Notes: generated from the sequence alone by a model not told the origin. Positions 18,250 to 64,000 are shown, counted from the stretch's first letter. The stretch is 64,000 nucleotides of DNA from Blastocatellia bacterium (GCA_963765495.1 CAVXWP010000002.1:541476-605475); one strand, 5' to 3'. Numbers and translations: made by a program.

Positions 18250-18443
18250 TGATATACTTACTACTGAAACATTTAAATCTGCAACTAAAGTATGCTAATT
18301 CTAAGCAAGTCATTGGCGAGGACAGAGGAGGGCCTAACGCCGAGTTCAGCGGCGCGCTGGTAGCCGAGGGATAATGAAATGGTGGAATGCGCGTCCGCTG
18401 GAATGAGCACTTAGACGCGGTCTGCGTCTTGAGCGGAAGCTCT

Positions 18444-18884
18444 TTATTCCGTTTTCTGCTCATTGACCACCGTCTCTAACGAGCGCGTGGTGTGTTCTGT
18501 GACGCTGAACGCTGATTCAGGAAGTACGCGATGCTTTGCCTCACTAAGCTCTTTCGCTGCTTCTTTATCAGTCTTCTTTCGACTCAATAACATCGAGACG
18601 AAAACGCCTTCGAGCCCAAGCATTATTAGAAAACTTAGCAAGGTAATTGCGATAATCAGCCCCATATTTTCAGGTCCGAACACCATCTTCATCGCCATCA
18701 TTAAGAAGATGATAGCTCCAAGGCCGAAGACGAAGACTGCTGTCATAAAAAACAGGAGCTTTTCAGACTTCACCTCTGATGCCTTGCTGACATCATCACC
18801 TTTTTCCCCACTCAGCTTAGCTCCGCAGTGGTTGCAATAGCTCAAGTTTGGTGAAACTGTCGAACCGCATTTTGAACAATACAT
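18444..18884 (-). CDS. Cassette: zinc-ribbon membrane protein
   Basis: MYCSKCG...YCNHCG plus two hydrophobic helices, C-terminal SVTEHTT. Confidence 0.8.
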   Translation of the reverse strand: MYCSKCGSTVSPNLSYCNHCGAKLSGEKGDDVSKASEVKSEKLLFFMTAVFVFGLGAIIFLMMAMKMVFGPENMGLIIAITLLSFLIMLGLEGVFVSMLLSRKKTDKEAAKELSEAKHRVLPESAFSVTEHTTRSLETVVNEQKTE

Positions 18885-19054
18885 ACTCTTCACCTCTCCG
18901 AGGCCATACGATAGGGCAAGTTGTTGTGTTCGGCAACGATGTGCTCGACCGGTGACAAGCGTCTAACGATGAGTTCAGCGGCGCGCTGGCAGCAACGGGA
19001 AACTGAATCATTGGAAAGCGCGTCCGCTGGAATGAGCAGTTAGGCCGAATTCAG

Positions 19055-19423
19055 TCATTTGAACTCATTGAGCCAGCGTATTTGGTTCTTCAATTCATCA
19101 ACTGATAGTGAGTTCAATAACCTCAATAATCTATGTAATAGAACGGCTACTGTTTCAGCAGTCGAAAGAATTATGCCAAAATGCTCTTTGCCTTCTTCGA
19201 GATACTTCTCGTGCAACTTAGTGAAATCAGCAAAGTTAAAAGTGACAATCGCACGCTGTTCACTCACTGCCCAATCAAATTGGGCCTTATCATCGTCTGA
19301 CAACTTTCCGGCCTCTTGAGAGGATACAGTATCAAAGCCATAGCGCCGAAGCTGCACAGCCAGGCGGGGTGACAGATGTTCGTTCAAATAAAGCTTTGGG
19401 GGATTATGCAACGGGTTGGGCAT
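19055..19423 (-). CDS. Cassette: DUF5615 PIN-like toxin
   Basis: KLYLNEHLSPRLAVQLRRYGFD...RAIVTFNFADF...HFGIIL; paired with DUF433 gene. Confidence 0.85.
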   Translation of the reverse strand: MPNPLHNPPKLYLNEHLSPRLAVQLRRYGFDTVSSQEAGKLSDDDKAQFDWAVSEQRAIVTFNFADFTKLHEKYLEEGKEHFGIILSTAETVAVLLHRLLRLLNSLSVDELKNQIRWLNEFK

Positions 19424-19700
19424 GACTCTCTAACCAATGCTCATAACTGTTTTGATAACGTAGTCGATCAATTTCCTCTTGGTTGTCGTGGTAGTAAGCA
19501 AGGGCGCTGAATACCTGAGCAGGGGTCAAATAATTCCACTCAGCCAAAATCTCCTCAACTGACATCCCAGCTTTATAGTAGTAGTCAACTAAATGCCATA
19601 CAGCTATCCGTGTGCCTTCTATAGTTGCTTCGCCTCCGCAGACGCCTAGAACTTTTACGACATGTGGGTAGGGAATGTAATGCATATTTTGTTCTGTCAT
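19404..19700 (-). CDS. Cassette: DUF433 antitoxin
   Basis: VCGGEATIEGTRIAVW...GMSVEEI...LTPAQVFSALAYY. Confidence 0.88.
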   Translation of the reverse strand: MTEQNMHYIPYPHVVKVLGVCGGEATIEGTRIAVWHLVDYYYKAGMSVEEILAEWNYLTPAQVFSALAYYHDNQEEIDRLRYQNSYEHWLESHAQPVA

Positions 19701-20354
19701 AAAGTTACCTCAATTGCTTTTTCCCTGAATTGCAATATTACCACATTTACCTTCTGAGAGTCTTATTTTGATGATCAGCACGATATACTGCGAGGGCCTG
19801 CTCTGAAAATAAAAGGGGTGCTAAATGTTGATAACGAGTAGATGAAGACAAACAACTCCGAGCCTGTGCGATATTACTTCTGCACAGCTTCATCAAACTG
19901 GTTGTCGGTAGGGCATTGGTTAATAAGCATGAGTCTGCTCTACGTGCTCAAAGGCAACAATTCGGGGTACCAGAAATATGCCCAGGTCAAACTGCTATAC
20001 AGGCTCGAAGCACCAAGGACCGTTCGACCTTCATACCGACATACAAAATTCTATCATGGCTCTCACACATTTTCATCATTCGAAGGTGAGCCGCAGGCTC
20101 ATGATGAACTAACGAGGAGATAACCGGCCCGCTGTGGCCCCCGATGCCATTGAGAAGGTGGCAAGCGCGTCCGGTTGATGGACCTGTTAGGCGCATCTCA
20201 TCTTGCAGGTTCAATAGAGATGGCCCTGTCCATATGCAAAGCCGCGCCAACAGATCGCCTCCTCTTAAGCATGATTTAAGGAGTAGCGCGGCGGACTGAT
20301 TGTAACACGATAGCTGGCAGACAGGTTCTGTTTGCAATGTGGTTGACAACCAGT

Positions 20355-20572
20355 CAGCGATTCCCGGTTAGACCGGAATTGAAGCGAACAAAGGAGATTA
20401 GAAATCGTGAAATTGCGTTGTAATTAAGGCAATCACAGCACTTAGCGCAAAACACCGATTACATCTATCCGATTTTGCTATAACTGTTGGTACAACAGAA
20501 TTTACTTTCGCAATTATCTTTTTCGCTTCCTCTTTTGATTTCATCAACTTACAACCTGACCGGGAATTGCTG
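20355..20572. mobile_element. 218-bp MITE in a family A cassette
   Basis: IRs cagcgattcccggttag / ctgaccgggaattgctg; 9-bp target duplication acaaccagt (20346-20354, 20573-20581). Confidence 0.85.
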
Positions 20573-20784
20573 ACAACCAGTGTGCCTCATTTTCACGGAT
20601 GGCTTTCCTGTGCGCTTAACGACGGAGATAACCGGCGCGCTGTGGTCTCCGCGTCATCTGAGCAGGTGGAATGCGCGTCCGGTTCATGGACCAGTTAGGC
20701 GCGCTCCGCTTTGTCGGTTCAATTCTGCACATTCTTTGAGCAGGCCGCGCTAGGAGTTCGTTGCTTTTCACCAATCGGTTTTCG

Positions 20785-20877
20785 AGTAATGGCTCAGTTA
20801 TGCGGGGAGGAAACAGCGTAAATCCTTTATTTGCAATGAGGGCATCTCAGCTTTCCCCGCGTAACTGACCGATTACA
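20785..20877. mobile_element. 93-bp mini-MITE
   Basis: IRs agtaatggctcagttatgcgggga / tccccgcgtaactgaccgattaca; flanking ttttcg duplication; absent from homologous cassette at 55785. Confidence 0.75.
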
Positions 20878-21416
20878 TTTTCGAGTTGCGAGGCGGAATG
20901 ATTCTACCAGCAATGCTTGTAGACAGGTACTCCTTGCTTCGTCTTTGGCGATCAGTGTGGTTCGTTTTCTTGGACCACTTCCTGCGCGCTTAACGCCGGG
21001 GATCAGCGGCCCGCTGTGGGCAAAGGGATAATGAGGCGGTGGCACGCGGGTCCGCTGAATGCCACGGTTAGGCGCGTTCTGATTTGTAAGTTCGTCACAG
21101 ATGAAGATTCCTGTCGTTCAAGCCGCGCAAGCTTACTTTACCTTTTAGCGGGACTTTGACTCTACCCTTTCGACTAGCGCGGCGAAGTGTGAGTCTAACT
21201 CGACAGACGTAGACAGGTCATTCTACCCTGCAATCTGACGACCAGTGTGAGTCTAACAGCACAGCTTGTAGACAGATAATATTGGCTGCGATCTTGGCGA
21301 CCAGTTTGGTTAATTCTCACCGACCAATTTCCTGCGCGCTTAACGCCGAGTTCAGCGGCGCGCCGGTAGCTGGTGGAACACAAAACGTTGGCACGCGCGT
21401 CCGCTGGAATGAGCAG

Positions 21417-21809
21417 TTAGGCTTGGTCCAATATTTTGACATCATATGCAAGTATATTACTGTCCACAGTTACCAGAGTCATATCCTTTTCCAATGCCTG
21501 GCATATCAAGATTCTATCAAACGGATCACGATGAATCATTGGGAGGGTGGCCAGTCTTGCTACACTCCCTTCCTTCAATGGCAGACTCTCAATCTTATGT
21601 TCGTCCCTTTGCTTTGGTATGTAACTGCCCGGAGGTTCAGGCAATGGCAGCTTCCCTATTTGATACTTGATAATTATTTCCCATAATGAAACAACGCTCA
21701 AAAACACATCATTCTCAGGGCTACGGATGGCTTCCAGAAAGGAATCTGGAAGCCGAAAATCCCCAATGATGTACCAGAGGAAAATGTGTGTATCGAGAAG
21801 GAGTTTCAT
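21417..21809 (-). CDS. vapC: Cassette: VapC PIN toxin
   Basis: LLLDTHIFLW...SVVSLWEIIIK...HRDPFDRILICQA. Confidence 0.92.
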   Translation of the reverse strand: MKLLLDTHIFLWYIIGDFRLPDSFLEAIRSPENDVFLSVVSLWEIIIKYQIGKLPLPEPPGSYIPKQRDEHKIESLPLKEGSVARLATLPMIHRDPFDRILICQALEKDMTLVTVDSNILAYDVKILDQA

Positions 21810-22045
21810 CTATCTTCAAATTCTTTGATAATAGCCTCCGGCAGTGGGGCGTCGAAGTCATCAGGCACTATGAAATTCCCCGCAGCTAAAGCAAAAGGGC
21901 GAGGAGAACGAGAGGCTGAAATGATGGGTTTGATTTCAGCAACGGGCTTACCGGCCCTAATAATAATAATACTCTCGCCAGCCTCGACACGTTCGATATA
22001 GGTCAAGAGGTTGCGCTTCATTTCATCTATGGTAATTGGAAGCAT
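21806..22045 (-). CDS. Cassette: Phd/YefM family antitoxin
   Basis: EMKRNLLTYIERVEAGESIIIIRAGKPVAEIKP...VPDDFDAPLP. Confidence 0.9.
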   Translation of the reverse strand: MLPITIDEMKRNLLTYIERVEAGESIIIIRAGKPVAEIKPIISASRSPRPFALAAGNFIVPDDFDAPLPEAIIKEFEDR

Positions 22046-23836
22046 AGGACAATTATCAAGCAGGTTTCTCATAAAATCAAACAAGGGTATGCCGAGGTCG
22101 ATGCGGAGCCTAACACCGAGATAACCGGCCCGCTGTGGTCGGAGGGATAATGAATCGCTGGCACGCGGGTCCGGTTGATTGAGCGGTTAGGCGGTCCCTT
22201 GCCTGTTTCATTTCTTGCGCTTGGCTGACCCTGATCCTCCTATTTTCACTCTCACTTTCTGAGACAGCTTTTCCTGTCATTGCCAAGGAAGCAGCTTGAT
22301 GTGCAAGCTTTGTCCTTCCCATTCAGGCTTCTCTACCCCTTGCCTCAACAGGTGGTTGTGCTGCGAAGGTATCTTTTCGAGGCAGCATTTTCATTGAGCC
22401 AGAGTGAATAATCCTTTGGAAGAAACATCCTATGAAGGAACAAGAGAAGAGAGAAGCGAGCAGGTGGCTGTCCTGGCGATGACTCACCTGAGCATGTTTT
22501 TCCATCACTGTTTGGCGAGTCGTCTCCCTCTCAATCGGTGATCTGACGCCTAACGTCCTGGTTGAGCGGCCCGCTGTGGCATCCCCTTCATCTGAATAGT
22601 TGGCATGCGGGTCCGGTCGAACCGGTTGTTAGGCGCGTTCTGATTTGCAAGTGCGTCACAGATGATTGCATTGGTTCGAGCCGCGCCTGCTTTCTTTGCC
22701 TTACAGCTGTATTTTGGCTCACCCTTTTCGAGAAGCGCGGCGGAGTGTGAGGCTAACAGCTTGGCTCATAGACAGGTCTACTTCGCTGCAATCTGACGAG
22801 CGATGTGAGTTTAAAAGCATTGCTTGTAGGCAGATATTCTTCGTCGCATCCTTGGCAATCAATGCCTCTCTTTCTCACCGACCAACTCCCGGCGCGCTTA
22901 ACACCGAGTTCAGCGGCGCGCCGTGGCCTCCGCTTCAACTGAGTAGCTGGAATGCGCGTCCGCTGGAATGAGCAGTTAGGCGGCTCCTTTCGGGATTCAT
23001 TCATTTCCTTGGGCTTTCCTGACAGGCTTCTTCCATTTCTTATCTCCTGTTTCATCTCAGTTTCTCCTCTTGCGCGCAATTCATACCTTCTCCGCTGGGG
23101 CAGGTTTTCTTGTCGGGGAAACTGCTTGATGTGCCAAGTTCCTCCTTTCCAAACAGTCTTCTCTGGCTCTTTGCTCAACAGGTAATTGGCTGCCGGAGTA
23201 TCTTTGCGAGATAGGTTTATCTTTGAGCAAGCCTGAAAAGAGAGCATCAGAAGAAAGGAGTTCAGATAAGGGAGAGTTGAGAGAAACAAACAGAGTTGAA
23301 TCGGGTAAAAAGGAGCGAGAGGCGAGCAAGTAGCAGTCCTCACTATGTCTCACTCGATCATGTTTTCATATCATTGCTTGGTGAGTCGTATCGGTTGTGA
23401 GATTGACGCCTAACGCCGGAGATAACCGGCGCGCTGTGGCCCCCGATGCCATCCAGAAGGTGGTATGCGCGTCCGGTTGATCGACCAGTTAGGCGCGTTC
23501 TGATTCGCAAGTATGTCACAGATAATTGCCTTCGTAATAGCCGCGCTGGCCCACTTTGCCTTTTAGCGAGGCTTTGACCTATCCTATTAAAGAAGCGCGG
23601 CGAGGTGTGAGGCTGACTCGACAGACGAAGAGAGGTGATCGCTGGTTGCAATCTGAGGGCCAGTGAGAGTCAAACAGCACAGCTTGAAGGCAAGTATTGT
23701 CGGCTGCGATCTAAACGACCAGTGTGATTCACTCTCATCAACCAACCTCCTACGCGCTTAACGCCCCGGTTGACCGGACCGCTGTGGCCTCCCCTTCAAG
23801 CGAGTGGTTGGCTTGCGGGTCCGGTCGAACCGGTTG

Positions 23837-24253
23837 TTAGACGCCGCTTTCAGCCATCAACGCCTTGAACCCTGCTTGCTCAAAATCTTGATCGAATGTC
23901 AGTGCTTCTGTTACTCCAGCATCCTTCATCGCTATAAATGAGATGCAGTCTATCAATCCCCAATCTTTGTCTTCGTACTTCTTGTATAGATCAAATGCCC
24001 GCTCGAACAGTTCTGTCGTGAGCCGTACTATTTGTACTTCCTCAGAGTCCAAGAAATCTTCAATGACATCGATGGCCTCTTGTTTATAATTGCGCGCTAA
24101 TCCGTTCCCGATCTCAAGCAGCACCGCGTCCGTAACGAGCAATGGATTGTCCTCATATTTAGCGGCTAATTCCCCAGCCTTTGCATGGTATTGATCGCGC
24201 GGGTTGATTAAAGCGACGACGAAGAGCGTGTCAACGAAGATTCGGTTCGGCAC
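23837..24253 (-). CDS. vapC: Cassette: VapC PIN toxin
   Basis: IFVDTLFVVALINPRDQYH...WGLIDCISFIAM...ALTFDQDFEQAGF. Confidence 0.92.
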   Translation of the reverse strand: MPNRIFVDTLFVVALINPRDQYHAKAGELAAKYEDNPLLVTDAVLLEIGNGLARNYKQEAIDVIEDFLDSEEVQIVRLTTELFERAFDLYKKYEDKDWGLIDCISFIAMKDAGVTEALTFDQDFEQAGFKALMAESGV

Positions 24254-26886: not shown

Positions 26887-27210
26887 TTAGGGGGCGAACA
26901 TCTCTGTTAATACTGTCAAAACATCTGATTCTATTTTCCTGTTAACCTTCCCTAATTTTCTTACGAGTCTTACTTTGTCAACAGTCCGAATCTGATCCAA
27001 TACGATTTGGCCTTTTTTGCCTTGGAATGTCAAAGCAACTCTCGTTGGGTAGCTTCTTCCTTTCGTTGTCATTGGAGCCACAATCACAGTGTTAATATGT
27101 CTATTCATTTCATCAGGGGAAATGATTAAACAAGGCCGTGTCTTCTTAATCTCACTGCCAATTGTAGGATCAAGATTGATGAGATAGACTTCAAATCTCC
27201 TGACTACCAT
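26887..27210 (-). CDS. mazF: Cassette: MazF/PemK toxin
   Basis: NLDPTIGSEIKKTRPCLIISPDEMN...VIVAPMT...LDQIRTVDKVRL. Confidence 0.93.
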   Translation of the reverse strand: MVVRRFEVYLINLDPTIGSEIKKTRPCLIISPDEMNRHINTVIVAPMTTKGRSYPTRVALTFQGKKGQIVLDQIRTVDKVRLVRKLGKVNRKIESDVLTVLTEMFAP

Positions 27211-27458
27211 TGCCACTCTTCTTCATCCCATTTAGTTGAGTTAGGAAAATAGTCATCAACAGATGAATCATCCTGATTTTCAGTCATAGTTTGAAAGGCT
27301 TGATCCCAAACATGCCTGGGATGCTGAGCAGATCGAATAATAATTTGATTGTCGAGTGCCTCAAGGTCAACCTCATCAGTAATGTTACTCTGTTCCAAGA
27401 GTAACTTTGGGATGCGAATACCTTGGGAATTACCAATTTTTATAATACGAGATTTCAT
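27204..27458 (-). CDS. mazE: Cassette: AbrB/MazE antitoxin
   Basis: IIKIGNSQGIRIPKLLLEQ...WDEEEWQW. Confidence 0.92.
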   Translation of the reverse strand: MKSRIIKIGNSQGIRIPKLLLEQSNITDEVDLEALDNQIIIRSAQHPRHVWDQAFQTMTENQDDSSVDDYFPNSTKWDEEEWQW

Positions 27459-27647: not shown

Positions 27648-28076
27648 TCAAAGTGCAAAAGGATTGGTTATCTTTAGCCGATTCTCTATTATCATTCCTC
27701 CACTCATATCTTCTGTGTACAGCATCTCTGCTGCTCCCAACAGCGCACTTGAAACGATGAGGCTGTCCCAAAAAGAAAACTGCAACTTCTCCCGTAGCTC
27801 TGAACCCTTCAACAATATGCTTCTGTCCATAACAACGACATCGTATTTATTATAGAAAGAGATGATGAGTGGTTGAAGACGTTGTTCATCGAATTGAGCT
27901 TTCTTGATGAGGTTGACACATATCTCATTAATGACTTGAGTGCTGACGATTATGTCGTTTTGTTGAATTATTGTTTTTGCAATAACTGATTTGTTCAGGT
28001 CTTGACCAGGAATAAAAGCATATAGCCAAATATTGGTATCAATAAAACATAAGGGTGTAGGACTAAGGTTGCTCAT
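27648..28076 (-). CDS. Cassette: PIN-domain toxin
   Basis: FIDTNIWLYA...STQVINEICVNL...SFWDSLIVSSAL...LYTEDM...ITNPF. Confidence 0.9.
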   Translation of the reverse strand: MSNLSPTPLCFIDTNIWLYAFIPGQDLNKSVIAKTIIQQNDIIVSTQVINEICVNLIKKAQFDEQRLQPLIISFYNKYDVVVMDRSILLKGSELREKLQFSFWDSLIVSSALLGAAEMLYTEDMSGGMIIENRLKITNPFAL

Positions 28077-28275
28077 AAATCTCTTCTCTCGCAAGAGGGC
28101 TGAATCCTTCAATGTTGAGGGGGTGAGCTAGAAGGTGTTCGATCATATCAAAATTTTCAGAGTTGTCTTCTGTAAGAAGAATGACCCGCACAACACCTTT
28201 GAACCTATCCCTGTGTTCTTCAGGAATAGTGATATTTCCGTCTCTTACTCTCGTTTGAAACTCAATTGCATTCAT
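28063..28275 (-). CDS. Cassette: putative antitoxin
   Basis: 70 aa MNAIEFQTRVRDGNITIPEE...AREEIYE overlapping the PIN gene. Confidence 0.75.
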   Translation of the reverse strand: MNAIEFQTRVRDGNITIPEEHRDRFKGVVRVILLTEDNSENFDMIEHLLAHPLNIEGFSPLAREEIYEQP

Positions 28276-28965: not shown

Positions 28966-30019
28966 AAACGAAAGCACCTCCGTTTCGAGAAATGTGTCAC
29001 TTCGGAACTAACTCCAAAGCAGTTGCCCTAAAGAACAAAGATGTTATGTAAAATGGGAGAGATTTTCAATTTGAAACAACAGCCAATCCTCATAAAAATA
29101 GAGCTGATGCTGCATTATCCATACAAAGAATTTCAGAGTAACAATGAGAGCCTAACACCGAGATAACCGGCCCGCTGTGGTCGGAGGGATAATGAATCGC
29201 TGGCACGCGGGTCCGGTTGATTGAGCGGTTAGGCGGTCCCTTGCCTGTTTCATTTCTTGCGCTTGGCTGACCCTGATCCTCCTATTTTCACTCTCACTTT
29301 CTGAGACAGCTTTTCCTGTCATTGCCAAGGAAGCAGCTTGATGTGCAAGCTTTGTCCTTCCCATTCAGGCTTCTCTACCCCTTGCCTCAACAGGTGGTTG
29401 TGCTGCGAAGGTATCTTTTCGAGGCAGCATTTTCATTGAGCCAGAGTGAATAATCCTTTGGAAGAAACATCCTATGAAGGAACAAGAGAAGAGAGAAGCG
29501 AGCAAGAGGCTCTCCTCGCTATGACTCGCCTGAACTGGTTTTCGTAGCGTTGCTTGTTGAGTCGTTTCCCTTTCATCGGTGATCTAACGCCTAACGCCGA
29601 GATAACCGGCGCGCTGTGGTCGGAGGGATAATGAGGCGTTGGAATGCGGGTCCGGTTGATGGACCAGTTAGGCGCATTCCACCTTGAAGGTTCGGTAAAG
29701 ATACCACTGTCGAAATGCCAAGCCGCGCCAACAGATAGCTTCGACTCAACCGGAATTTATCGGGTAGCGCGGCGCAGTGATTGTGTCAGTACACTTTGTA
29801 GACATGTAGTCTGATTGCTTGGTTGACGATCAGTGTAGCTCATTATCACGGATCGCTTCCCTGTGCGCTTAACGCAGGCATCAGCGGCCCGCTGTGGTGA
29901 AAGGGAAAATGAGGAGTTGGCAAGCGGGTCCGCTGAATGCCTCAGTTAGGCCCGACTCTGAGTCTGCATCGCTATGCGTGTTCACAGGTATGTGTTCATA
30001 ACCACTTCTTACTGTAACG

Positions 30020-30529: not shown

Positions 30530-32012
30530 ATCAACTCCCCGAGTAAATTGAACAAGCGTCTTGAGAGATTATACATGACAGGAAACATTTTGGGCTTAAC
30601 GCCGGAGATAACCGGCCCGCTGTGGCCCCCGATGCCATTGAGAAGGTGGCAAGCGCGTCCGGTTCATGGACCTGTTAGGCGCATTCTACCTTGCAGGTTC
30701 ATTACAGTTGGGCTTGTCTCACATCAAGCCGCGCTGATAGTTTGCTTCCCGTTGACCAATAAATCACAAATAGCGCGGCGCGGTGATTGTGTCAATACTG
30801 TTGGCAGACAGGTGATCTGATTGCTCCGTTTACGATCAGTGTCGCTCATTTTCACGGATGGCTTTCCTGTGCGCCTAACACCGAGATAACCGGCCCGCTG
30901 TGGGCTCAGGGATAACGAGAAGTTGGTTTGCGGGTCCGGTTGATCGACTTGTTAGGCGGCTCCCCTTGCTGATTTATCTCTTCGCCTTCGCTCGTTTTCA
31001 TCTTCCAATCCTCTTCCTCCCTTCTCTTTGCAGTTTCTTCCTGACTGCTTAAAAGCTGTTTGCCTGGTCGAAAGCTTCCTTCCCAAGCAGGTCTGCTTTG
31101 GCCAAGGCTTATCAGGCAAACTGGCTTGAAGAGGCTCTTTGGCAAATAACCCAGAGACAGAGCATAGCTGAAAGCACTGCATTGTAGAAGTGTGAGCCTG
31201 ATGAAGGCGAGAAGATTGATCGTTCTCGGCAGTGACTCCATAACAGGTCTTTTTGGCATCGCTTGATGAGCCGTTTCCTCTCTATCGATATTCTGACGCC
31301 TAACGCCGGAGATAACCGGCGCGCTGTGGCCTGCAATGCAAGCGAGACATTGGTATGCGCGTCCGGTTGATGGACCAGTTAGGCGCATTCCACCTTGTAG
31401 GTTCAATAGAGTTACTCGTTCCCCTCTGCCAAGGCGCGCCCAGTGTTGATTTGCTTTTCAATCAGCAAATATAGGAGGGCGCGGCGGACTGATTGTGTCA
31501 GCACTGTTGGCAGGCAATTAGTCTGATTGCTTCATAGACGAGTAGTATGCCTCTTTTTCACGGATGGCTTTCCTGTGCGCTTAACGCCGGAGATAACCGG
31601 CGCGCTGTGGCCCCCGATGCCATCCAGAAGGTGGTATGCGCGTCCGGTTGATCGACCAGTTAGGCGCGTTCTGATTCGCAAGTATGTCACAGATAATTGC
31701 CTTCGTAATAGCCGCGCTGGCCCACTTTGCCTTTTAGCGAGGCTTTGACCTATCCTATTAAAGAAGCGCGGCGAGGTGTGAGGCTGACTCGACAGACGAA
31801 GAGAGGTGATCGCTGGTTGCAATCTGAGGGCCAGTGAGAGTCAAACAGCACAGCTTGAAGGCAAGTATTGTCGGCTGCGATCTAAACGACCAGTGTGATT
31901 CACTCTCATCAACCAACCTCCTACGCGCTTAACGACGAGTTCAGCGGCGCGCCGGTAGCTGATGGAACGCGAGCAGTTGGAATGCGCGTCCGCTGGAATG
32001 AGCAGTTAGGCT

Positions 32013-33496: not shown

Positions 33497-33499
33497 CAG

Positions 33500-34959: not shown

Positions 34960-35089
34960 ATTTCACGTTTACTCCTTAATGCTGAAATTGAACTGTGGGT
35001 GCCAACTTAACTTCCAAGTAAAAGACCGAAGCTCAATAGGATTATACGCAAACTGACTTGAGATTCAAAAAATAAAGAGTCAGCTAGGC

Positions 35090-38799: not shown

Positions 38800-38964
38800 A
38801 GGACAATTATCAAGCAGGTTTCTCATAAAATCAAACAAGGGTATGCCGAGGTCGATGCGGAGCCTAACGACGAATTCAGCGGCGCGCTAGTAGCTAAGGG
38901 ATAATGATGAGGTGGCACGCGCGTCCGCTGGAATGAGCAGTTAGGCTGAGTCCAATGACTCTCT

Positions 38965-50023: not shown

Positions 50024-50901
50024 TGCGGGCGTCTAACGTCCCGGTTGACCGGCCCGCTGTGGCCTCCACTTCATGCGAATAGTTGGCTTGCGGGTCCGGT
50101 CGAACCGATGGTTAGGCGGCTCCCCTCGCTGTTTTACCTCTTCGCCTTCTCTCATTTTCATCTCTCGTTTCTATCCTCCTCTCCCATCTCCTTCTTTCTC
50201 CTTGCTTGATGACTGTCGATTTGCAGAAACCATCCTTCCCTGACAGGTCTGCTTTGGCCATTTCTGCGCAGGCAATTTCGCTTGAAATGGCTCTGTGGAA
50301 AACAGCCCTGAGACTGAGCATATCTGAAAGCAGAGATTTGATGAAGAATGATTCTGATGAGGAATTGCAGCGAGAAGTAGCATTGATAGGTGAACGGATC
50401 CATTCTCCTCGCGGTGTCTTTGCTGTCAGGTCTTTAAGCGATTGCTTGCCGAGTCGTTTCCATTTCACCGTTGTTCTGACGCCTAACGCCGGAGATAACC
50501 GGCGCGCTGTGGGCTCAGGGATAATGAAGGGTTGGAATGCGGGTCCGGTTGATGGACCAGTTAGGCGCATTCCACCTTGAAGGTTCGGTAAAGATGCCTC
50601 TGTCGAAATGCCAAGCCGCGCCAGCAGATAGCTTCGACTCAACCAGGATTTATCGGGTAGCGCGGCGCAGTGATTGTGTCAGTACACTTTGTAGACATGT
50701 AGTCTGATTGCTTGGTTGACGACCAGTATGCCTCATTGTCACGGATGGCTTTCCTGTGCGCTTAACGCCGAGTTCAGCGGCGCGCTGGTAGCTGAGGGAT
50801 AATGAAATGTTGGCAAGCGCGTCCGCTGGAATGAGCAGTTAGGCGCAGCTTTGCATTGGGACCACAATTCCAACTTAAAGACCAATTCCTCTGTTTCAAT
50901 C

Positions 50902-51123
50902 TTATGCGTAAATCAACCGTCCTCTGGATTCTGGAATTGGCCGTCCTAGTTCTCTTGCTGTCTCAACCCATTCTTGAATGATGACCTCTACATTTTTTAA
51001 TGCTTCTGCATAAGTGCTTCCGTCTGCTGCACAGCCAGTTAATTCTGGAACCTCAGCTATGAAGGCATCATCTTCTTGGCTCCAATAAATAATCACTTCG
51101 TATTTGTATGTACTCTCCATCAA
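50902..51123 (-). CDS. hicB: Cassette: HicB antitoxin
   Basis: YEVIIYWSQEDDAFIAEVPELTGCAADGSTYAEAL...ARELGRPIP. Confidence 0.9.
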   Translation of the reverse strand: MMESTYKYEVIIYWSQEDDAFIAEVPELTGCAADGSTYAEALKNVEVIIQEWVETARELGRPIPESRGRLIYA

Positions 51124-51374
51124 TTGTCTCCTGTTAGTTTATAACGGATTATTACCGCACGAACTTGTTTGACTTGATAAGGCTTGGCCTTTCGTTCTTT
51201 GGGTTGGAGATTGAGAATCTCCTCAACATTTTCTTTGGTAAAGATGTGATGGCTGCCTTTAATGCGTTCGTCAAATCCCAAGTGGCGAAGCACAAGACAT
51301 AAATCGTCAAATGGAATATTGGTATCAGATGTGCCTCGCAATACCAGGGTTAGAATTTTCTCGAATTTTGCCAC
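51120..51374 (-). CDS. hicA: Cassette: HicA toxin
   Basis: LGFDERIKGSHHIF...LNLQP...AKPYQVKQVR. Confidence 0.9.
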   Translation of the reverse strand: MAKFEKILTLVLRGTSDTNIPFDDLCLVLRHLGFDERIKGSHHIFTKENVEEILNLQPKERKAKPYQVKQVRAVIIRYKLTGDN

Positions 51375-52290
51375 GAAAAGACTTTAGCACGAATGAGAGT
51401 TCGACTCCACTTCGCCTAACGCGGAGATAACCGGCCCGCCGTGGGCAAAGGGATAACGAGAGGTTGGCATGCGGGTCCGGTTGATCGACCTGTTAGGCCC
51501 GCCTTTGTCTTTGGCCGCGCTCGGCGCTTATTTCGAGCAAATCAGTCTGCCTCGATTGGCGCGGCCCCAACCTTAACTCCTTGCTTGGTGTTTTGACCTT
51601 TTCGTCATCATGGTCTTGTTGTCCGAAATACCTTTGCATCCAATTCGTTGCTGTTGGTCAGGTACTTTCCCGCGAGCCTAACGCAGGCATCAGCGGCCCG
51701 CTAGCAGCAAAGGGATTATGAGGAGGTGGTTTGCGGGTCCGCTGAATGCCTCTGTTAGGCGCCCCTTTTCTCCTATTCTTCTTCTTGTGTTTTGATGACT
51801 GGCTTCTTTCTTTTCTCATCTTCTTTCCAGCAAATCATCGCCTCTCCCTTGCTCTTGCTTCACGTCTCCATGTGTATCAGCTTCCCTCTCTTTCGTCGCT
51901 GTAGTTTGTCGAGGCGATTTGTTTCTCTTTGTCAGTCATCTCTTCTCTAGCGCGCAGCTAAACAGGGCATTTCCCTGCGAAGCTTTCCTTCCGAGGCAGC
52001 TTTATCTTTAAGCAATGTTTGAGAGTCTGCTTCGGGAAAAGGAGTATCCGTTATAGGGGCAGAGATGAGCGATGCATGCCGAGTTGAAGGAGCGAAGGAA
52101 TGAGAAGCAAGCAAGTAGCTGTCGTTGCGAGGGCTTCCAAGAAGAGGTTTTAGCGCCAAGGCCTGGTGAGTTGTTTTGCTTCCATCAATATCTTGACGCC
52201 TAACGCCCCGGTTGACCGGCGCGCTGGTAGTTGTTGGAACCTGAGTAGTTGGATAGCGCGTCCGGTCGAACCGGCTTGTTAGACGCGTAG

Positions 52291-53538: not shown

Positions 53539-54427
53539 TTTATAAAATGACTATGAAGCGTACAACTTCATTTCTCACTAACGGCTCTGCCGCGCCTAAC
53601 GCCGGAGATAACCGGCGCGCTGTGGCCTGCAATGCAAGCGAGACATTGGTATGCGCGTCCGGTTGATGGACCAGTTAGGCGCATTCCACCTTGTAGGTTC
53701 AATAGAGTTACTCGTTCCCCTCTGCCAAGGCGCGCCCAGTGTTGATTTGCTTTTCAATCAGCAAATATAGGAGGGCGCGGCGGACTGATTGTGTCAGCAC
53801 TGTTGGCAGGCAATTAGTCTGATTGCTTCATGGACGAGTAGTATGCCTCATTTTAACGGATGGCTTTCCTGTGCGCTTAACACCGAGATAACCGGCCCGC
53901 TATGGTCAAAGGGATAATGAGGAGTTGGCATGCGGGTCCGGTTGATTGAGCAGTTAGGCGGCCCCTTTCGCCGCTTCATTCTTTTTGAGCTTTGCTGACC
54001 ATTATTCTCCAATTCTCAGTCTCACTTTCTGAGGCAGCTTTTCCTGCCATTGTCGGGGAAGCAGGTTGATGTGCAAGGCTAGTCCTTCCCAATCAGGTTT
54101 GACCTGCCGCCTACCTCAACAGGCAATTGCCCTGCGAAAGTATCCTTGAGAGGCAGCATCGTCATTGAGCCAGAATGAATAATCGTTTGGAAGAAACATC
54201 ATATGAATGAGCAAGAAAGAGAGAAGCGAGCAGGTGGCTCTGCTCGCGATGACTCCCCTGAGCATGTTTCGTAGCGTTGCTTGATGAGTCGTCTCCCTCT
54301 CATCGGTGTTTTGACGCCTAACGCCCCGGTTGAGCGGCGCGCCGGTAACTGATGGGACGCGAAATGTTGGAATGCGCGTCCGGTCGAACCGGCTGTTAGA
54401 CGCGGTTTTGCCAAAGTTCACCTTCAT

Positions 54428-54832: not shown

Positions 54833-57347
54833 GCATCAACTCCCGTTGTCGATGGCTCCTCTGCGTCTAACGACGGAGATAACCGGCGCGCTGTGGGCCT
54901 CGATGCAAATGAGTAGATGGCATGCGCGTCCGGTTGATGGACCAGTTAGGCGCATTCCACCTTGAAGGTTCGGTAAAGATGCCACTGCCCATCTGGCAAG
55001 GCGCGCCAGGAAATCGCATCCTCACAATCAACATTCATCGAAAGGCGCGGCGGACTGATTGTGTCAGCATTGCTTGTATGCAGGCACTCTTCGTTGCACC
55101 CTATGTGATCAGTGTGGCTCATCCTAACGAACAACTTCCCAGCGCGCTTAACGCCGGAGATAACCGGCCCGCTGTGGGCTCAGGGATAATGAAGGGTTGG
55201 AATGCGGGTCCGGTTGATGGACCAGTTAGGCGCATTCCACCTTGTAGGTTCAATAGAGTTACTCGTTCCCCTCTGCCAAGGCGCGCCCAGTGTTGATTTG
55301 CTTTTCAATCAGCAAATATAGGAGGGCGCGGCGGACTGATTGTGTCAGCACTGTTGGCAGGCAATTAGTCTGATTGCTTCATAGACGAGTAGTATGCCTC
55401 TTTTTCACGGATGGCTTTCCTGTGCGCTTAACGCCGGGGATCAGCGGCCCGCGGTGGGTAGAGGGATAATGAATCGGTGGTAGGCGGGTCCGCTGAATCC
55501 CCCTGTTAGGCGCGTCCCATCTTGTCGGTTCAATTCTGCATATTCTTCGAGCAAGCCGCGCACATATATCGTTTCCAGATATCGAGCATACATCGGGTTG
55601 CGCGGCGGAGTGATTCTAACAGCATTGTTTGTAGACAGGTATTCTTCTCTGCATCTTTGGCGATCAATGTGGTAGGTTTTCTCGGACCGCTTCCTGCGCG
55701 CTTAACGCAGGCATCAGCGGCCCGCTGGTAGCAGCGGGATAAAAGCACGGTGGCACGCGGGTCCGCTGAATGCCACAGTTAGGCGCGTTCAATCTTGTCG
55801 GTTCGATTCTGCATATATTCTTCGAGCAAGCCGCGCTAGGAGTTCGTTGCTTTTCACCGAGCAGCTTTCGAGTTGCGCGGCGGACTCCTTGTAAAAGGAT
55901 CGCTGGTAGACATGTATTCTTTGCTGCGTGATTGACGATCAGTGTGCCTCATTGTCACGGATCACTTCCTGCGCGCTTAACGACGGAGATAACCGGCCCG
56001 CTGTGGGCTCAGGGATAATGAAGGGTTGGAATGCGGGTCCGGTTGATGGACCAGTTAGGCGCATTCCACCTTGAAGGTTCGGTAAAGATACCACTGTCGA
56101 AATGCCAAGCCGCGCCAACAGATAGCTTCGACTCAACCGGAATTTATCGGGTAGCGCGGCGCAGTGATTGTGTCAGTACACTTTGTAGACATGTAGTCTG
56201 ATTGCTTGGTTGACGATCAGTGTAGCTCATTATCACGGATCGCTTCCCTGTGCGCTTAACGACGAGATAACCGGCCCGCCGTGGGCAAAGGGATAACGAG
56301 AGGTTGGCATGCGGGTCCGGTTGATCGACCTGTTAGGCCCGCCTTTGTCTTTGGCCGCGCTCGGCGCTTATTTCGAGCAAATCAGTCTGCCTCGATTGGC
56401 GCGGCCCCAACCTTAACTCCTTGCTTGGTGTTTTGACCTTTTCGTCATCATGGTCTTGTTGTCCGAAATACCTTTGCATCCAATTCGTTGCTGTTGGTCA
56501 GGTACTTTCCCGCGAGCCTAACGCCGAGATAACCGGCGCGCTGTGGTCGGAGGGATAATGAGGCGTTGGAATGCGGGTCCGGTTGATGGACCAGTTAGGC
56601 GCATTCCACCTTGAAGGTTCGGTAAAGATACCACTGTCGAAATGCCAAGCCGCGCCAACAGATAGCTTCGACTCAACCGGGATTTATCGGGTAGCGCGGC
56701 GCAGTGATTGTGTCAGTACACTTTGTAGACATGTAGTCTGATTGCTTGGTTGACGATCAGTGTAGCTCATTATCACGGATCGCTTCCCTGTGCGCTTAAC
56801 GTCGGGGATCAGCGGCCCGCTGTGGGCAAAGGGATAATGAATAGCTGGCATGCGGGTCCGCTGTATCCCCCTGTTAGGCGTCACTCCTCGCTGTTTCATC
56901 TCTTCGCCTTTGCTCGTTTTCATCCTCCGATCCTCATCTTGTCTTCTCCCAACAGCTTCTTACTCATTGCTTGAAAGCTGATTCAATTGCCGATAGCTTC
57001 TTTCCCAACCAGGTCTGCCTTGGCCAATGATCATCAGGCAATCTCGATAGGACTGGGTCTGTGCCAGTAAGCCCAGAGAAGAGCATAGCTGAAGGCACTC
57101 GAATGGAGAAGTGTGAGTCTGATGAAGGCGAGAAGATTGATCGTCCCCGGCAGTGATTTCAAAGCAGGTCTTTTGGAATTGATAGCTGAGTCGTTTCCTC
57201 TCCACCGATCTTCTGACGCCTAACGCCCCGGTTGAACGGCCCGCTGTGGCCTCCCCTTCAAGCGAGTGGTTGGATTGCGGGTCCGGTCGAACCGGTTGTT
57301 AGACGGCGTCTTTTCCTGCGAGCATTCTTTGGTCTTTTGTTTTTCTC

Positions 57348-57713: not shown

Positions 57714-58365
57714 TTGAAAGTCACCATGACGTCAGCTGTCTAACGCCGAGTTCAGCGGCGCGCCGGTAGCTGGTGGAACGCGAGTAGTTGGAAAGCGCGT
57801 CCGCTGGAATGAGCAGTTAGGCGGCTTCCTTCGCCGATTCATCCTTCTTGAGCTTTCCTGATCATAACCCTCCTATTCTTATCTCTCGTTTCTGCACAGT
57901 TTCTCTTCTTCCTCACAGGTCATTTCCTCTCTCGTGCGACAGGTGTTGCTCTCTTTCGTCGGGGAAGCTTTTTGATCTGCCTACTTCCTCTTTTCCAAAC
58001 TCGCCTCTCTGATGCTTGTCTCAACAGGCAATCGGCTGAACAGGCTTCTTCGCCAGACAGGTTTATATGAGCAATGCTGAAAGACTGCTTTGGGAGAAAG
58101 AAGTGTCAGATGAAGGAGCAGGGATGAGAGACACAGCAGAGTAGTATGGGGATAAAGAGGCAAGAGAATCGAGCAAGTAGGGGTCCTGGCGATGACTTGC
58201 CTGGACAGGTTTCAACAGCAAGGCAAACTGAGTCGTCTCCCTTTCGTCGGTGATCTGACGCCTAACGACGAGTTCAGCGGCGCGCCGGTAGCTGATGGAA
58301 CGCGAGCAGTTGGCATGCGCGTCCGCTGGAATGAGCAGTTAGGCTTGGCCCCTTGTCGATGCAAG

Positions 58366-59170: not shown

Positions 59171-62167
59171 TTTGAATCTATCCCGAATTTGAGAAAAATG
59201 AAATGTTTGTTGGTTTGTCCAAACCAAGAAATATCGGATTACCGAGCGAGCCTAACGACGAATTCAGCGGCGCGCTGGCGGCAAAGGGATAGTGAGAAGG
59301 TGGAATGCGCGTCCGCTGGAATGAGCAGTTAGGCGGCTTCCTTCGCCCCTCCATCCTCCTTCCTCTTGGCCGATCATTACCTCCCATTTCTCTTCTCCTC
59401 TTTCGCCTCTGTTTCTCCTCCTCCCTACTGTTATCCTCTCTTGCGTAATAGGGTTTCTTGCTTGTTGTCGCGGAAGGTTCCTGATCTCCCAGCTTGCCTT
59501 TCCCACACTCTTTTCTCTGCTGGTTGGCTCACCAAACCATTCAACTGCGAAGCTATCTTTGCCAGACAGGTCTATCTTTGAGCAAAGTTGAATAGTTGCT
59601 ATTGGAAAAGGAAATATCCAATAAAGGAGCAGAAATGATCGAATAAGCAGAGGTGCATCTGGTAAAGAGCAATGAGAAGCGAGCAAGTGGATGTCCTGGC
59701 GATGTCTTACCTAATATTGTTTTCGCCTCATTGCTTGGTAAGTCGTTTCGCTTCTGAGAGATTGACGCCTAACGCCGGGGATCAGCGGCCCGCTGTGGCC
59801 GAAGGGATAACGAGAAGCTGGTATGCGGGTCCGTTGAATGCCCATGTTAGGCGCGCCTTTGTCGTTGGCCGCGCTCGGCTTTCTGGGCAATTCAATCAAG
59901 GCATATCGGGAGGCGCGGCCCCAATCTTGACTCGCTGCTTTGTGACTGCGTCGTTTAGTTACTATGACATTGTTCACTCTTTTTTCCGCCTCTGTGTCGT
60001 TGCTGTTGGTCAGGAAATTTCCCCGCGAGCCTAACGCGGAGATAACCGGCGCGCTGTGGGCTCAGGGATAATGAAGGGTTGGAATGCGGGTCCGGTTGAT
60101 GGACCAGTTAGGCGCATTCCACCTTGAAGGTTCGGTAAAGATGCCTCTGTCGAAATGCCAAGCCGCGCCAGCAGATAGCTTCGACTCAACCAGGATTTAT
60201 CGGGTAGCGCGGCGCAGTGATTGTGTCAGTACACTTTGTAGACATGTAGTCTGATTGCTTGGTTGACGACCAGTATGCCTCATTGTCACGGATGGCTTTC
60301 CTGTGCGCTTAACGCCGGAGATAACCGGCGCGCTGTGGCCCCCGATGCCATCCAGAAGGTGGTATGCGCGTCCGGTTGATCGACCAGTTAGGCGCGTTCT
60401 GATTCGCAAGTATGTCACAGATAATTGCCTTCGTAATAGCCGCGCTGGCCCACTTTGCCTTTTAGCGAGGCTTTGACCTATCCTATTAAAGAAGCGCGGC
60501 GAGGTGTGAGGCTGACTCGACAGACGAAGAGAGGTGATCGCTGGTTGCAATCTGAGGGCCAGTGAGAGTCAAACAGCACAGCTTGAAGGCAAGTATTGTC
60601 GGCTGCGATCTAAACGACCAGTGTGATTCACTCTCATCAACCAACCTCCTACGCGCTTAACGCCGAGTTCAGCGGCGCGCTGTGGGCGAAGGGATAATGA
60701 ACAGTTGGCAAGCGCGTCCGCTGGAATGAGCAGTTAGGCGAGTGCTCTCCGTAATTCATCCTTCTTGCTTCTGCCATTTCCATCTTTGCGACTCATTGCC
60801 TCTGGTCGAAGTATTCTGGCGGGTAGAAGCTGGGCTTGCATTGAGAGCAGAGTGTTGTAGACGAGGCAATCGGGGGTTGGGTGATTGGATGCTTTGGTGC
60901 GTGGGTAGCAGATTGACAGGGGAGCAAGTGCATTGTCCTGGCGATGTCTCGCCTGCTCTTGATATTGCGGCTTTACCTGATGAGTCGTTTCAATTCAACG
61001 GATTCACTGACGCCTAACGTCCCGGTTGACCGGCCCGCTGTGGCCTCCACTTCATGCGAATAGTTGGATTGCGGGTCCGGTCGAACCGATGGTTAGGCGG
61101 CTCCCCTCGCTGTTTTACCTCTTCGCCTTCTCTCATTTTCATCTCTCTTTTCTATCCTCCTCTCCCATCTCCTTCTTTCTCCTTGCTTGCTGAGTGTCGA
61201 TTTGCAGAAACCATCCTTCCCTGACAGGTCTGCTTTGGCCATTTCTGCGCAGGCAATTTCGCTTGAAATGGCTCTGTGGAAAACAGCCCTGAGACTGAGA
61301 ATATCTGAAAGCAGAGATTTGATGAAGAATGATTCTGATGAGGAATTGCAGCGAGAAGTAGCATTGATAGGTGAACGGATCCATTCTCCTCGCGGTGTCT
61401 TTGCTGTCAGGTCTTTAAGCGATTGCTTGCCGAGTCGTTTCCATTTCACCGTTGTTCTGACGCCTAACGCCGGAGATAACCGGCGCGCTGTGGCCCCCGA
61501 TGCCATCCAGAAGGTGGTATGCGCGTCCGGTTGATCGACCAGTTAGGCGCGTTCTGATTCGCAAGTATGTCACAGATAATTGCCTTCGTAATAGCCGCGC
61601 TGGCCCACTTTGCCTTTTAGCGAGGCTTTGACCTATCCTATTAAAGAAGCGCGGCGGAGTGTGAGGCTGACTCGACAGACGAAGAAAGGTGATCGCTGGT
61701 TGCAATCCGAGGGCCAGTGAGAGTCAAACAGCACAATTTGTAGGCAGGTAATATTGGCTGCGTTCTTGACGGCCAATGTGATTGATTTCCATCGACCAAC
61801 TCCCAGCGCACTTAACGCCGGGGATCAGCGGCCCGCTGTGGCCGAAGGGATAACGAGAAGCTGGTATGCGGGTCCGTTGAATGCCCATGTTAGGCGCGCC
61901 TTTGTCGTTGGCCGCGCTCGGCTTTCTGGGCAATTCAATCAAGGCATATCGGGAGGCGCGGCCCCAATCTTGACTCGCTGCTTTGTGACTGCGTCGTTTA
62001 GTTACTATGACATTGTTCACTCTTTTTTCCGCCTCTGTGTCGTTGCTGTTGGTCAGGAAATTTCCCCGCGAGCCTAACGACGAGTTCAGCGGCGCGCCGG
62101 TAGCTGGTGGAACGCGAGCGGTTGGCACGCGCGTCCGCTGGAATGAGCAGTTAGGCTGAGTCCAGTT

Positions 62168-62410
62168 CTAAGTGCTTCCAAGTTCTCTTATTCTTTGTTT
62201 TTCTTCTTCTGCTTTTCGTTTGAAGTAAAGCGATAGCCATGAAGGGGCTTTATCAAGGTATAATGCAAACAATGTGACAACAGGCGTTGCGACAGATAGC
62301 ATCAAAAAACACGCAATAAATAAATCACGAGTCCGTAATCCGTATATTGATAAAAGAATTACACCCATGATCAAGAGAGATGCATTAAAGACGAAGCTAA
62401 TAATTTTCAT
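62168..62410 (-). CDS. Cassette: small two-TM membrane protein
   Basis: AAGGAG RBS; two hydrophobic segments and a charged tail. Confidence 0.7.
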   Translation of the reverse strand: MKIISFVFNASLLIMGVILLSIYGLRTRDLFIACFLMLSVATPVVTLFALYLDKAPSWLSLYFKRKAEEEKQRIRELGST

Positions 62411-63179
62411 AAAAGAAGTCTCCTTGAATGAGGTTAATGGAAAACGCAATAAGAATTCAAACGAAGAATGAGAATAGGAAGACCTTTAGGAAGATGTGAG
62501 ATTGAGTTAGGCAGACAAATTTGCCTGAGTAATCAATGGCGAGGGCTTTTGAGGTATTGCAAGCACAAAGGAAAAGAAAGGACTATCAGATTCAATAATC
62601 CAAGTCTTTCCGGGTGACCGAGTGAGCCTAACGACGAGTTCAGCGGCGCGCAGGTAGCTGCGGGATAATGAGAGGGTGGCATGCGCGTCCGCTGGAATGA
62701 GCAGTTAGGCGGCCTCTTAATTGTTTCATTTCCTTGAGCGTTGCTGACCTCCTTCTTCCAATACTCCTCTCCTGTTTCGGCGCAGTTCTCCTCTCTCTCT
62801 GTTGCTACCTTCTCCTGTGATAGGTCTTCCTGTTGTTGTCGGGAAAGTTTTTTGATGTGCTAAGTTCATCATTGCCAATCAGGTTTGTACTGCCACATTC
62901 CTCAACAAGCAATTGGGTGCGAATGTATCTTTGAGAGGCAGGATAATCTTTGAGAAGTGCTGAAATGTCAGCATCGGGAGAAAGCAGTATTGGGTAAAGA
63001 GGAAATAGAAGCGGGCAAGTAGCTGTCCTCACGATGACACGCATGAATCTGTTTTCGCATCATCGCTTTATGAACCGTCCCCCTTTCGTCGGTGATCTGA
63101 CGCCTAACGCCGAGTTCAGCGGCGCGCCGGTGGTAAAGGAAATCAGATTTTGGAAATGCGCGTCCGTTGGAATGAGCAG

Positions 63180-63570
63180 TTAGGCCGCAGCCAGCGCACT
63201 GACCATCACGTAATACCCATCAGGATCTCGGAGTGCGAATTCTCTGGTGCCAGTATTGGGGTTCATATGCGGGTTCCTCTTCCAGTTCAGCGACAAGGGC
63301 ACGTGCTCGATGCAGCGTCTCATCGAAGTCGTCCACACGAAAGAACAAGAGTAGTCCATTGCCAGGCTGAGCATGATCGGGACTGGTCAGTGGTGGATGT
63401 TCGTGGGCTCCCCACTGGTGAAGGCAAAGCAAGACTGTTGCATCGGTGTCTAGGATTTGCCCGAAGTCCTGATGAGCGGGATTGGTTTCCGGTTGTCCAA
63501 ACAGCGACTGATACCACTTGAAGCTTCGAGTAACATCAGCAACGCCTATGATTGTCCAGGTACGCTTCAT
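63180..63570 (-). pseudogene. Cassette: VOC/glyoxalase family protein with frameshift near 63270
   Basis: IIGVADVTRSFKWYQSLFG...GNGLLLFFRVDDFD...EEEP continues in another frame as HMNPNTGTREFALRDPDGYYV. Confidence 0.8.
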
Positions 63571-63619
63571 AGCTCCCTCCTGCGGCCAAACTGAGATTTA
63601 GTAGTCATAAAGAAAATTG

Positions 63620-63648
63620 ATTCTACGAAGAATCGGTTTGATATTCAA
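63620..63648 (-). promoter_or_regulatory. Sigma70-like promoter in shared cassette leader
   Basis: TTGAAT-N17-TAGAAT. Confidence 0.65.
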
Positions 63649-64000
63649 TTGAAGCGGCCAGAGTAATCTGGAAATGGAAATTCGAAGAGTCTCAGTTTTC
63701 TCCAAATCGAGAAGCAACGGGAGGTCGAGCGAGCCTAACGCCGGGAATCAGCGGCCCGCTGTGGGCGAAGGGATAACGAGACGCTGGTATGCGGGTCCGT
63801 TGAATGCCCATGTTAGGCGCGCCTTTGTCGTTGGCCGCGCTCGGCTTTCTGGGCAATTCAATCAAGGCATATCGGGAGGCGCGGCCCGAATCTTCGACTC
63901 GCCCCTTTGTGACTGCGTCGTTTAGTTACTATGACATTGTTCACTCTTTTTTCCGCCTCTGTGTCGTTGCTGTTGGTCAGGAAATTTCCCCGCGAGCCTA

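Follow-up and report, generated by a model that had tools for sequence, protein, structure and literature searches.

Two superfamilies of non-coding cassettes in an integron array of a Blastocatellia bacterium

A 64,000-nucleotide stretch of the genome of a Blastocatellia bacterium (GCA_963765495.1, CAVXWP010000002.1:541476-605475; hereafter the window) contains an integron cassette array (18334-64000, minus strand) with 83 attC sites and 83 cassettes, the last of which is cut by the contig end. According to blastn clustering and a table of open reading frames (ORFs), 52 of these 83 cassettes (63%) are gene-less. Both numbers, obtained here from independent attC detection and clustering, equal those of an original prediction made from the sequence alone. 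The gene-less cassettes are true non-coding integron cassettes and form two superfamilies. Families G1, G3, G4, and G15 make up type I, which is characterised by a conserved leader at the 5' end and by a GC clamp, GCCGCGC...GCGCGGC, around an interior that measures about 38 nt, or 48 nt in the case of G3. Type II, comprising G2 and G5, has a conserved 5' block followed by a pyrimidine-rich tract and a purine-rich 3' third. In the whole genome at least 224 attC sites were detected and 205 cassettes delimited, of which 102 belong to the five families G1 to G5 (104 with G15), distributed over seven contigs. The genomic copy numbers are 33 for G1, 32 for G2, 14 each for G3 and G4, and 9 for G5, and any other cluster among the 205 cassettes has at most three members.

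Array direction and gene-less cassette families

All 87 occurrences of the heptamer GTTAGRC lie after position 18000. A [CT]TAAC partner core lies 82-85 nt upstream of 82 of these sites and is missing at 20367, 32863, 33499, 46324, and 62506. The total of 83 attC sites consists of the 82 paired sites and a degenerate first one, the most distal site of the array (18334-18416, plus strand), whose right-hand core reads CTTAGAC on the plus strand. The sites recur at cassette spacing as imperfect inverted repeats with RYYYAAC and GTTRRRY cores at their ends, and 34 of the 75 distinct sites, folded together, give a consensus structure of -25.85 kcal/mol with 20 pairs, six of them with compensatory changes. 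In this consensus fold the 3' arm, as read on the plus strand, has one unpaired T and one unpaired G. The bottom strand, which is the one recombined by IntI, is recognised by its extrahelical bases and is cleaved between A and C in its R' box (as described in the cited portion of PMC2727003). Since the unpaired T and G sit on the plus strand, the plus strand of the window is the attC bottom strand and the cassettes lie on the minus strand, opposite to the direction originally predicted. Consistently, a covariance model of attC scores the real sites at 75-95 bits on the plus strand and 13-23 bits on the minus strand, all Pfam-matched cassette ORFs except transposases are on the minus strand, and at each of the three intI genes of the genome the same polarity rule yields the canonical layout, in which the integrase gene points away from its cassettes. 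Cassettes were cut at CTAA/C of the left core, which is the true border and lies about 80 nt to the left of the borders assumed before, and their bodies were clustered by blastn.

Because the cassettes lie on the minus strand, the integrase side must be beyond 64000, where the contig ends; the array thus has its distal end at 18334, and on the intI-proximal side it continues beyond the end of contig C2. No tyrosine recombinase was found within the 64-kb window, and the three IntI proteins above the TIGR02249 cut-off are all encoded on other contigs. A search for contig-end overlaps joining the array of the window to an intI contig found none; contig C17 starts with a co-oriented array that leads to intI. 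Many of the 17 contigs of this genome start or end inside cassette arrays (C2 at its start and its end, C3, C6, C9, C12, and C17), and the integron or integrons seem to be what breaks the assembly.

The gene-less cassettes have short bodies of 183-443 nt, each with its own attC site, and all copies listed below are on the minus strand. G1, a type I family with cassettes of about 279 bp and bodies of about 199 nt, has 18 copies in the window (29595-29872, 30600-30878, 31304-31584, 43268-43546, 45062-45340, 45341-45619, 46577-46857, 48830-49109, 49110-49388, 50487-50765, 53600-53880, 54871-55151, 55152-55431, 55432-55705, 55706-55980, 55981-56259, 56522-56799, and 60035-60312). G3, of about 348 bp, has the ends and the hairpin in common with G1 and contains an extra middle part; its nine copies are located at 20994-21343, 22554-22901, 23414-23761, 31585-31932, 40332-40679, 42399-42746, 44714-45061, 60313-60660, and 61468-61815. 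The 262-bp cassettes of G4 are found at 51420-51681, 56260-56521, 59773-60034, and 61816-62077, with a fifth, truncated by the end of the contig, at 63739-64000. By eye, G4 and many coding cassettes begin alike at the 5' end with TTAGGCTCGC..., a similarity that reaches past the 7-nt R' core (for example at 37503, 39584, 41371, and 59255 on the minus strand). G15 comprises two identical 507-bp cassettes (20113-20619 and 46070-46576) that have the hairpin motif, G1-like ends, a translated block in common with G1, and no ORF of 60 aa or more.

Among the type II families, the pyrimidine-rich tract and the purine-rich 3' third are seen in the 11 copies of G2, which measure 439-522 bp (22114-22553, 22902-23413, 29156-29594, 36367-36843, 42747-43267, 43547-44009, 51682-52203, 53881-54321, 57744-58265, 59256-59772, and 62632-63107). 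The five copies of G5 are 424-450 bp long (30879-31303, 45620-46069, 50037-50486, 56800-57223, and 61018-61467), and their 5' start, TTAGGCGTCAGA..., also occurs in G2. Two ORF-poor single cassettes were assigned by eye only, one at 20620-20993 to type I and one at 60661-61017, which starts like G5, to type II. With these two, the three families of 30, 17, and 5 cassettes that had been predicted are recovered as G1, G3, G15, and one single cassette, as G2, G5, and the other single cassette, and as G4, respectively. The predicted run of eight consecutive gene-less cassettes is real as well and extends, with corrected borders, from 54871 to 57223 on the minus strand in the order of five G1 cassettes, G4, G1, and G5. 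The families hold both identical and diverged members (65-70% identity), as had been noticed before.

Coding tests, the type I hairpin, and related genera

The cassettes of G1 to G5 are non-coding. Many family members hold chance ORFs of 50-140 aa. In alignments of G1, G3, G4, and G5, however, the synonymous share of differing codons is only 0.09-0.23 in all six frames and stop codons occur in every frame, and in G2 this share is 0.149-0.163 with 3-5% stop codons. In contrast, the three intI genes of the genome, which are 60-84% identical and served as a control, have a synonymous share of 0.569 without stops in the true frame and of 0.05-0.08 in the other frames. The alignments also contain single-base indels and frame switches between subfamilies, and the longest ORFs are in different frames. 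None of the eight longest chance ORFs compared with Pfam had a match, and a 118-aa ORF of G5 retrieved only itself from 5.8 billion proteins when sequences of 64-207 aa were searched. These results support the original reading of the families as non-coding.

The type I hairpin is exemplified by positions 55555-55608 on the minus strand (C2:597030-597083) inside the G1 cassette 55432-55705, where CCGCCGCGC is followed by a 38-nt interior and GCGCGGC. Within the cassettes of the whole genome, the pair of clamp motifs is present at 55 places, which correspond to 24 of the 33 G1, 13 of the 14 G3, and 13 of the 14 G4 cassettes, both G15 cassettes, and three others; it is absent from G2 and G5. Outside the cassettes the motif occurs at about 50 places over the other 7.2 Mb, which is near chance. 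The interior measures 38 nt in G1, G4, G15, and a 159-nt family of the related genome G036, 36-37 nt in the related genome G019, and 48 or 83-88 nt in longer variants. Folding energies of the hairpin range from -13 to -25 kcal/mol, and the interiors fold differently in each subfamily. The sequence of the clamp is invariant and thus gives no covariation signal, which is uninformative either way with respect to a structured RNA. As a GC-rich inverted repeat with a long interior, the hairpin resembles the apex of the attC sites of this array. A function as a second attC site was considered and rejected: the hairpin is not an attC-type recombination site, because it lacks R and L boxes and scores only 4-6 bits (E>2) with the attC model (4.2 bits for the example above) as compared to the 75-95 bits of real sites. 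Counts of the clamp pattern over 53 genomes of the family were uninformative, being near those of a reversed-pattern control in most genomes (33 versus 16 in this genome), and other phyla show the motif only sporadically at their IntI loci.

Sequence comparisons with relatives retrieved almost nothing. BLAST of a G1 cassette against 60 relatives gave only one 32-nt match (E=4e-4), the exact two-block pattern of G1 had no match in a species genome collection, and nhmmer profiles of G1 to G5 found nothing in 80 IntI loci of other taxa or in the cassette bodies of relatives. Three metagenome contigs that matched a relaxed G1 pattern have neither attC cores nor BLAST similarity, and these matches were taken as chance. 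IntI itself was detected in 35 of the 52 further genomes of this acidobacterial family, and the attC model detected arrays beside it in all ten stretches that were fetched. Cassettes were delimited in six of these ten stretches, from five genomes. In G036, 13 of 31 cassettes are ORF-poor, with bodies of 159 nt (six copies) or 201-205 nt (seven copies); in G019, bodies of 151-152 nt occur in 6 of 17 cassettes; and a third relative, G006, has two short cassettes. The short ORF-poor cassettes of these three genomes cannot be aligned to G1-G5, yet they carry the GCCGCGC...GCGCGGC inverted repeat. G036 and a fourth relative, G015, also have candidate type II cassettes of about 390-408 nt, with the pyrimidine-then-purine profile of G2 and G5. 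With regard to family content, the searches found no homologue at the sequence level in other genomes, but arrays in related genera of the family contain runs of short ORF-less cassettes with the same two architectures. In the G036 locus L129, two identical 373-nt bodies (14691-15063 and 18365-18737) contain a 56-aa ORF resembling a small two-helix membrane protein, which suggests that short cassettes are not all gene-less.

Propagation and competing explanations

Exact copies reveal the unit that is multiplied. Cassettes with 100% identity make up 51 pairs in 19 groups, and identity ends no more than 7 nt upstream of the cassette border in 48 pairs and no more than 8 nt downstream in 44. The copies end at cassette borders, and the copied unit is therefore the whole cassette, as IntI produces. 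The families also occupy attI-proximal places in two of the three intI-linked arrays of the genome. Read from attI, the array on C17 starts with G1, G3, G1, two coding cassettes, G2, G2, and G1, that on C6 with G3, G4, and G1, and that on C3 with a coding cassette, G4, G4, and G2; G3-type hairpins are located between intI and the first detected attC site in C17 and C6, too. When the array of the window is divided into halves, gene-less cassettes number 30 of 41 on the proximal side and 22 of 42 on the distal side (Fisher P=0.07).

On these grounds we tentatively favour, with a confidence somewhat short of even, self-propagating non-coding cassettes with a cis-acting hairpin over a regulatory role. 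IntI would excise and re-insert each non-coding cassette as a unit, the cassettes would keep re-entering at attI, and their abundance would be driven mainly by their own propagation. They would be parasites or commensals of IntI and not genes, because they are the shortest cassettes, have intact attC sites, are copied far more than coding cassettes, and re-enter at attI. We infer that gene-less cassettes are more mobile than coding ones and that the hairpin and the leader, both conserved, are cis-acting elements of either the DNA or the transcript.

Several observations weigh against self-propagation. In the window, gene-less and coding cassettes follow each other in near-random order (34 runs versus 39.8 expected, P=0.10), and neighbours of the same family are not enriched (6 versus 6.4 expected). 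According to the cited portion of PMC5371416, shorter cassettes are excised more often when attC bottom strands are on the lagging-strand template, as observed for VCR-flanked cassettes. This counts in favour of self-propagation, but the published effect of length on excision is conditional and not general. Furthermore, invariant alignment columns cluster modestly in G1, G2, and G4, where 37, 5, and 38 of 2000 shuffles, respectively, reach the observed run; the same test gave no clear clustering in G3 or G5. In cassettes of related genera the clamp sequence recurs unchanged, the interior differs little in length (36-38 nt), and the 5' leader is similar, the rest being unalignable. Such conservation of clamp, interior, and leader across genera hints at a function, since pure parasitism needs no such feature. 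The long-term selection that the original prediction had derived from the coexistence of near-identical and diverged copies is thus weakly indicated within the genome and more strongly by the common architecture in related genera. Finally, the 159-nt family of G036 (12799-19787 in L129, G036:C7:2194300-2214299) has a promoter-like sense motif, TTGAC(T/A)-17-TA(T/A)(G/T)TT, in the hairpin interior, with the -10 element directly before the 3' half of the clamp. A scan detected TTGAC(T/A)-17-TANNNT in four of the six copies; by eye, the -35 element is present in all six and a TANNNT -10 element in five.

The conserved clamp and interior length and the promoter-like motif of G036 would also fit regulatory cassettes that serve the array as promoters, as insulators or terminators, or as transcript-stabilising hairpins, and that control neighbours far from Pc. 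Gene-less cassettes with promoters are also said to have been described by Tansirichaiya et al. in 2019. In Vibrio, most of 29 tested gene-less cassettes had sense-strand promoter activity, and such promoters are not predictable in silico according to the cited portion of that study (Blanco 2024, PMC11014356). The cassettes described here resemble these in being gene-less members of arrays and in the promoter-like motif of one relative's hairpin family, but differ in that promoter-like sites do not fall at a conserved column in any family of this genome. At best, such sites coincided in 2 of 18 G1, 6 of 26 G2, 4 of 9 G5, and 6 of 9 near-identical G3 sequences, the latter in antisense. Neither sigma-70-like sites (20 found versus 19.3 expected) nor terminator-like sites (26 versus 21.7) are enriched in this genome. 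The negative promoter result is weak, because promoter rules of the acidobacterial host may differ from a sigma-70-like pattern. A gene-less cassette is followed by a coding one in 17 of 52 cases, as compared to 38% expected by chance, which is again near random, and runs of up to eight gene-less cassettes make little sense for promoters. A regulatory role is the main alternative, though less likely than self-propagation. A more specific version, which we consider unlikely, regards type I as a mobile cis-element specific to the integrons of this acidobacterial family, in which the sequence-conserved 7-bp clamp (GCCGCGC/GCGCGGC) and an interior of fixed length (about 38 nt) would form a hairpin-gated promoter or operator, so that cassettes would be expressed in step with the activity of the integron. 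Type II would then be another cis-module of an unrelated kind. For one genus or more, the hairpin interior would hold a candidate promoter, and the hairpin would open or close when the DNA is single-stranded or cruciform, the same state that folds attC and triggers recombination.

The remaining explanations are less probable than these. Genes for structured or trans-acting small RNAs would be consistent with the GC-clamped hairpin of type I and its folding energy, and with minimum free energy (MFE) z-scores, which give a faint hint of structure. A Xanthomonas integron cassette is reported to carry a small RNA. However, the z-scores, computed against plain shuffles, are weak (averages of roughly -0.6 to -1.6), the clamp lacks covariation, and the interiors of the subfamilies do not fold alike. 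Moreover, no Rfam family matched the array at the gathering score over the whole window, where only parts of group II introns were found, or at E<=1 over 42000-64000. For G2 a structured RNA was rejected: the consensus of 25 of its 26 distinct sequences has 14 pairs and folds with only -2.11 kcal/mol, as compared to the attC control. Small RNA genes thus appear quite improbable, and a shade more so does an origin by passive multiplication, through array duplication, of decayed coding cassettes or of neutral filler. ORFs of 80-140 aa in G2, G3, and G5, which are due to composition, could be taken for remnants of genes, but the ORFs have no Pfam match, the one that was searched has no relatives among proteins, the copies end at cassette borders and not at segment borders, and similar architectures persist in other genera. 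Small conserved peptides are very improbable: some G1 subfamilies start with AGGAAAGCC...ATG and have ORFs of 28-43 aa, but other G1 subfamilies lack this ATG and its frame, which is also disrupted by single-base indels, and stops in all frames and low synonymous shares set these cassettes apart from the intI control.

Least probable of all is an assembly artefact, in which repeated cassettes were duplicated or mis-ordered by the assembler. Contig ends inside arrays would be in line with such an error. Among sequencing runs, none of RNA was listed for this DNA. One DNA run, which may be the source sample, contains a fraction of 0.45 of the sampled words; between 46000 and 63999, 28 of 30 bins are covered by short contigs of this run, which have alternative joints at attC sites. 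Such joints in the short contigs of a single run can neither confirm nor refute the cassette order; the copy number and order of identical copies rest on the contig, with these short contigs as the only comparison. An artefact is nevertheless hard to reconcile with members that differ by up to 30-35% and have different neighbours, with the occurrence of the same families on seven contigs, and with the coverage by the short contigs. The families would exist even if an artefact had altered how many identical copies are counted.

Surroundings of the array, comparison with Vibrio, and significance

The coding cassettes of the array, all on the minus strand where Pfam assigns a function, encode the Na+/H+ antiporter NhaA (46935-48164), three PIN toxins (21420-21809, 23840-24253, and 27651-28112), MazF (26890-27216), and HicA (51123-51374); further Pfam matches are a cupin, an ankyrin protein, a methyltransferase, a glyoxalase, and DUF421. 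Two oversized "cassettes" within 31933-36366 are insertion sequences that landed inside the array. One of 2187 bp contains an IS4-type transposase (32063-33484, plus strand), and the other of 2247 bp a second DDE transposase (35111-36250, minus strand). Whole cassettes occur as exact duplicates at 21344-22113 and 38098-38867 and, in the case of G15, at the two sites given above; a PIN toxin cassette is among the duplicates.

Remains of group II introns detected by Rfam (13158-17875, plus strand) adjoin the distal end of the array. The intron parts are domains D1-D4 at 13158-13270 and domain V/VI at 16703-16803 and again at 17799-17875. The reverse transcriptase (RT) ORFs are split into an N-terminal part (13496-14410), a complete RT-maturase-HNH ORF (15024-16700), and a C-terminal part (16764-17795), as if one intron had entered another within its ORF. 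A transposase ORF of an insertion sequence, with an rve integrase core and helix-turn-helix domains, is located to the left of the introns (12342-13124, plus strand).

Non-coding cassettes are a known phenomenon, of which the array described here is a further example. In Vibrio arrays they make up 6-49% of the cassettes, for example 107 of 219 in V. vulnificus CMCP6, and one family has 45 members (Boucher 2006, PMC1382264, in the portion cited here). These shares do not support, as it was worded, the original assumption that gene-less cassettes are usually a minority. The same source recognised non-coding cassettes by the lack of an ORF above 150 bp and of protein matches, by conservation over the full length without a synonymous pattern, and by frequent paralogues in the same array with a lineage-restricted distribution, and it proposed a selfish or regulatory role. 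Here, too, the homologues are full-length and without a synonymous pattern, paralogues are common within an array, and relatives are restricted to one lineage. The Vibrio cassettes, as characterised there, are ORF-less and, like those described here, highly paralogous; they account for up to half of an array and are confined to one lineage. The two cases differ in phylum, the present one belonging to the Acidobacteriota (class Blastocatellia), and in the share of gene-less cassettes, which is higher in our window. Moreover, homologues in different Vibrio species are more than 80% identical (PMC1382264), whereas other genera have only the architecture in common with the cassettes described here, that is, clamp, interior length, 5' leader, and composition profile. 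In the literature on acidobacterial integrons and on non-coding or ORF-less cassettes, no title or abstract opening was found that describes these families. What is new is thus the lineage, the share (63% in the window and about half genome-wide), and two architectures that recur across genera, including a clamp conserved in sequence.

Large chromosomal integrons are regarded as gene banks. This integron differs from that view, as 104 of 205 cassettes in the genome and 52 of 83 in the window are gene-less. Related soil acidobacteria are alike in this respect, and non-coding DNA may therefore account for a large part of what integrons move in this abundant soil lineage. If the cassettes are parasites of IntI, they would bear on the evolution of array size, on cassette turnover, and on the cost of the integrase. 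If the hairpin is regulatory, it would represent a portable control element for cassettes that are otherwise silent. In either case, the families offer well-defined test sequences, among them an easily mutated clamp motif.

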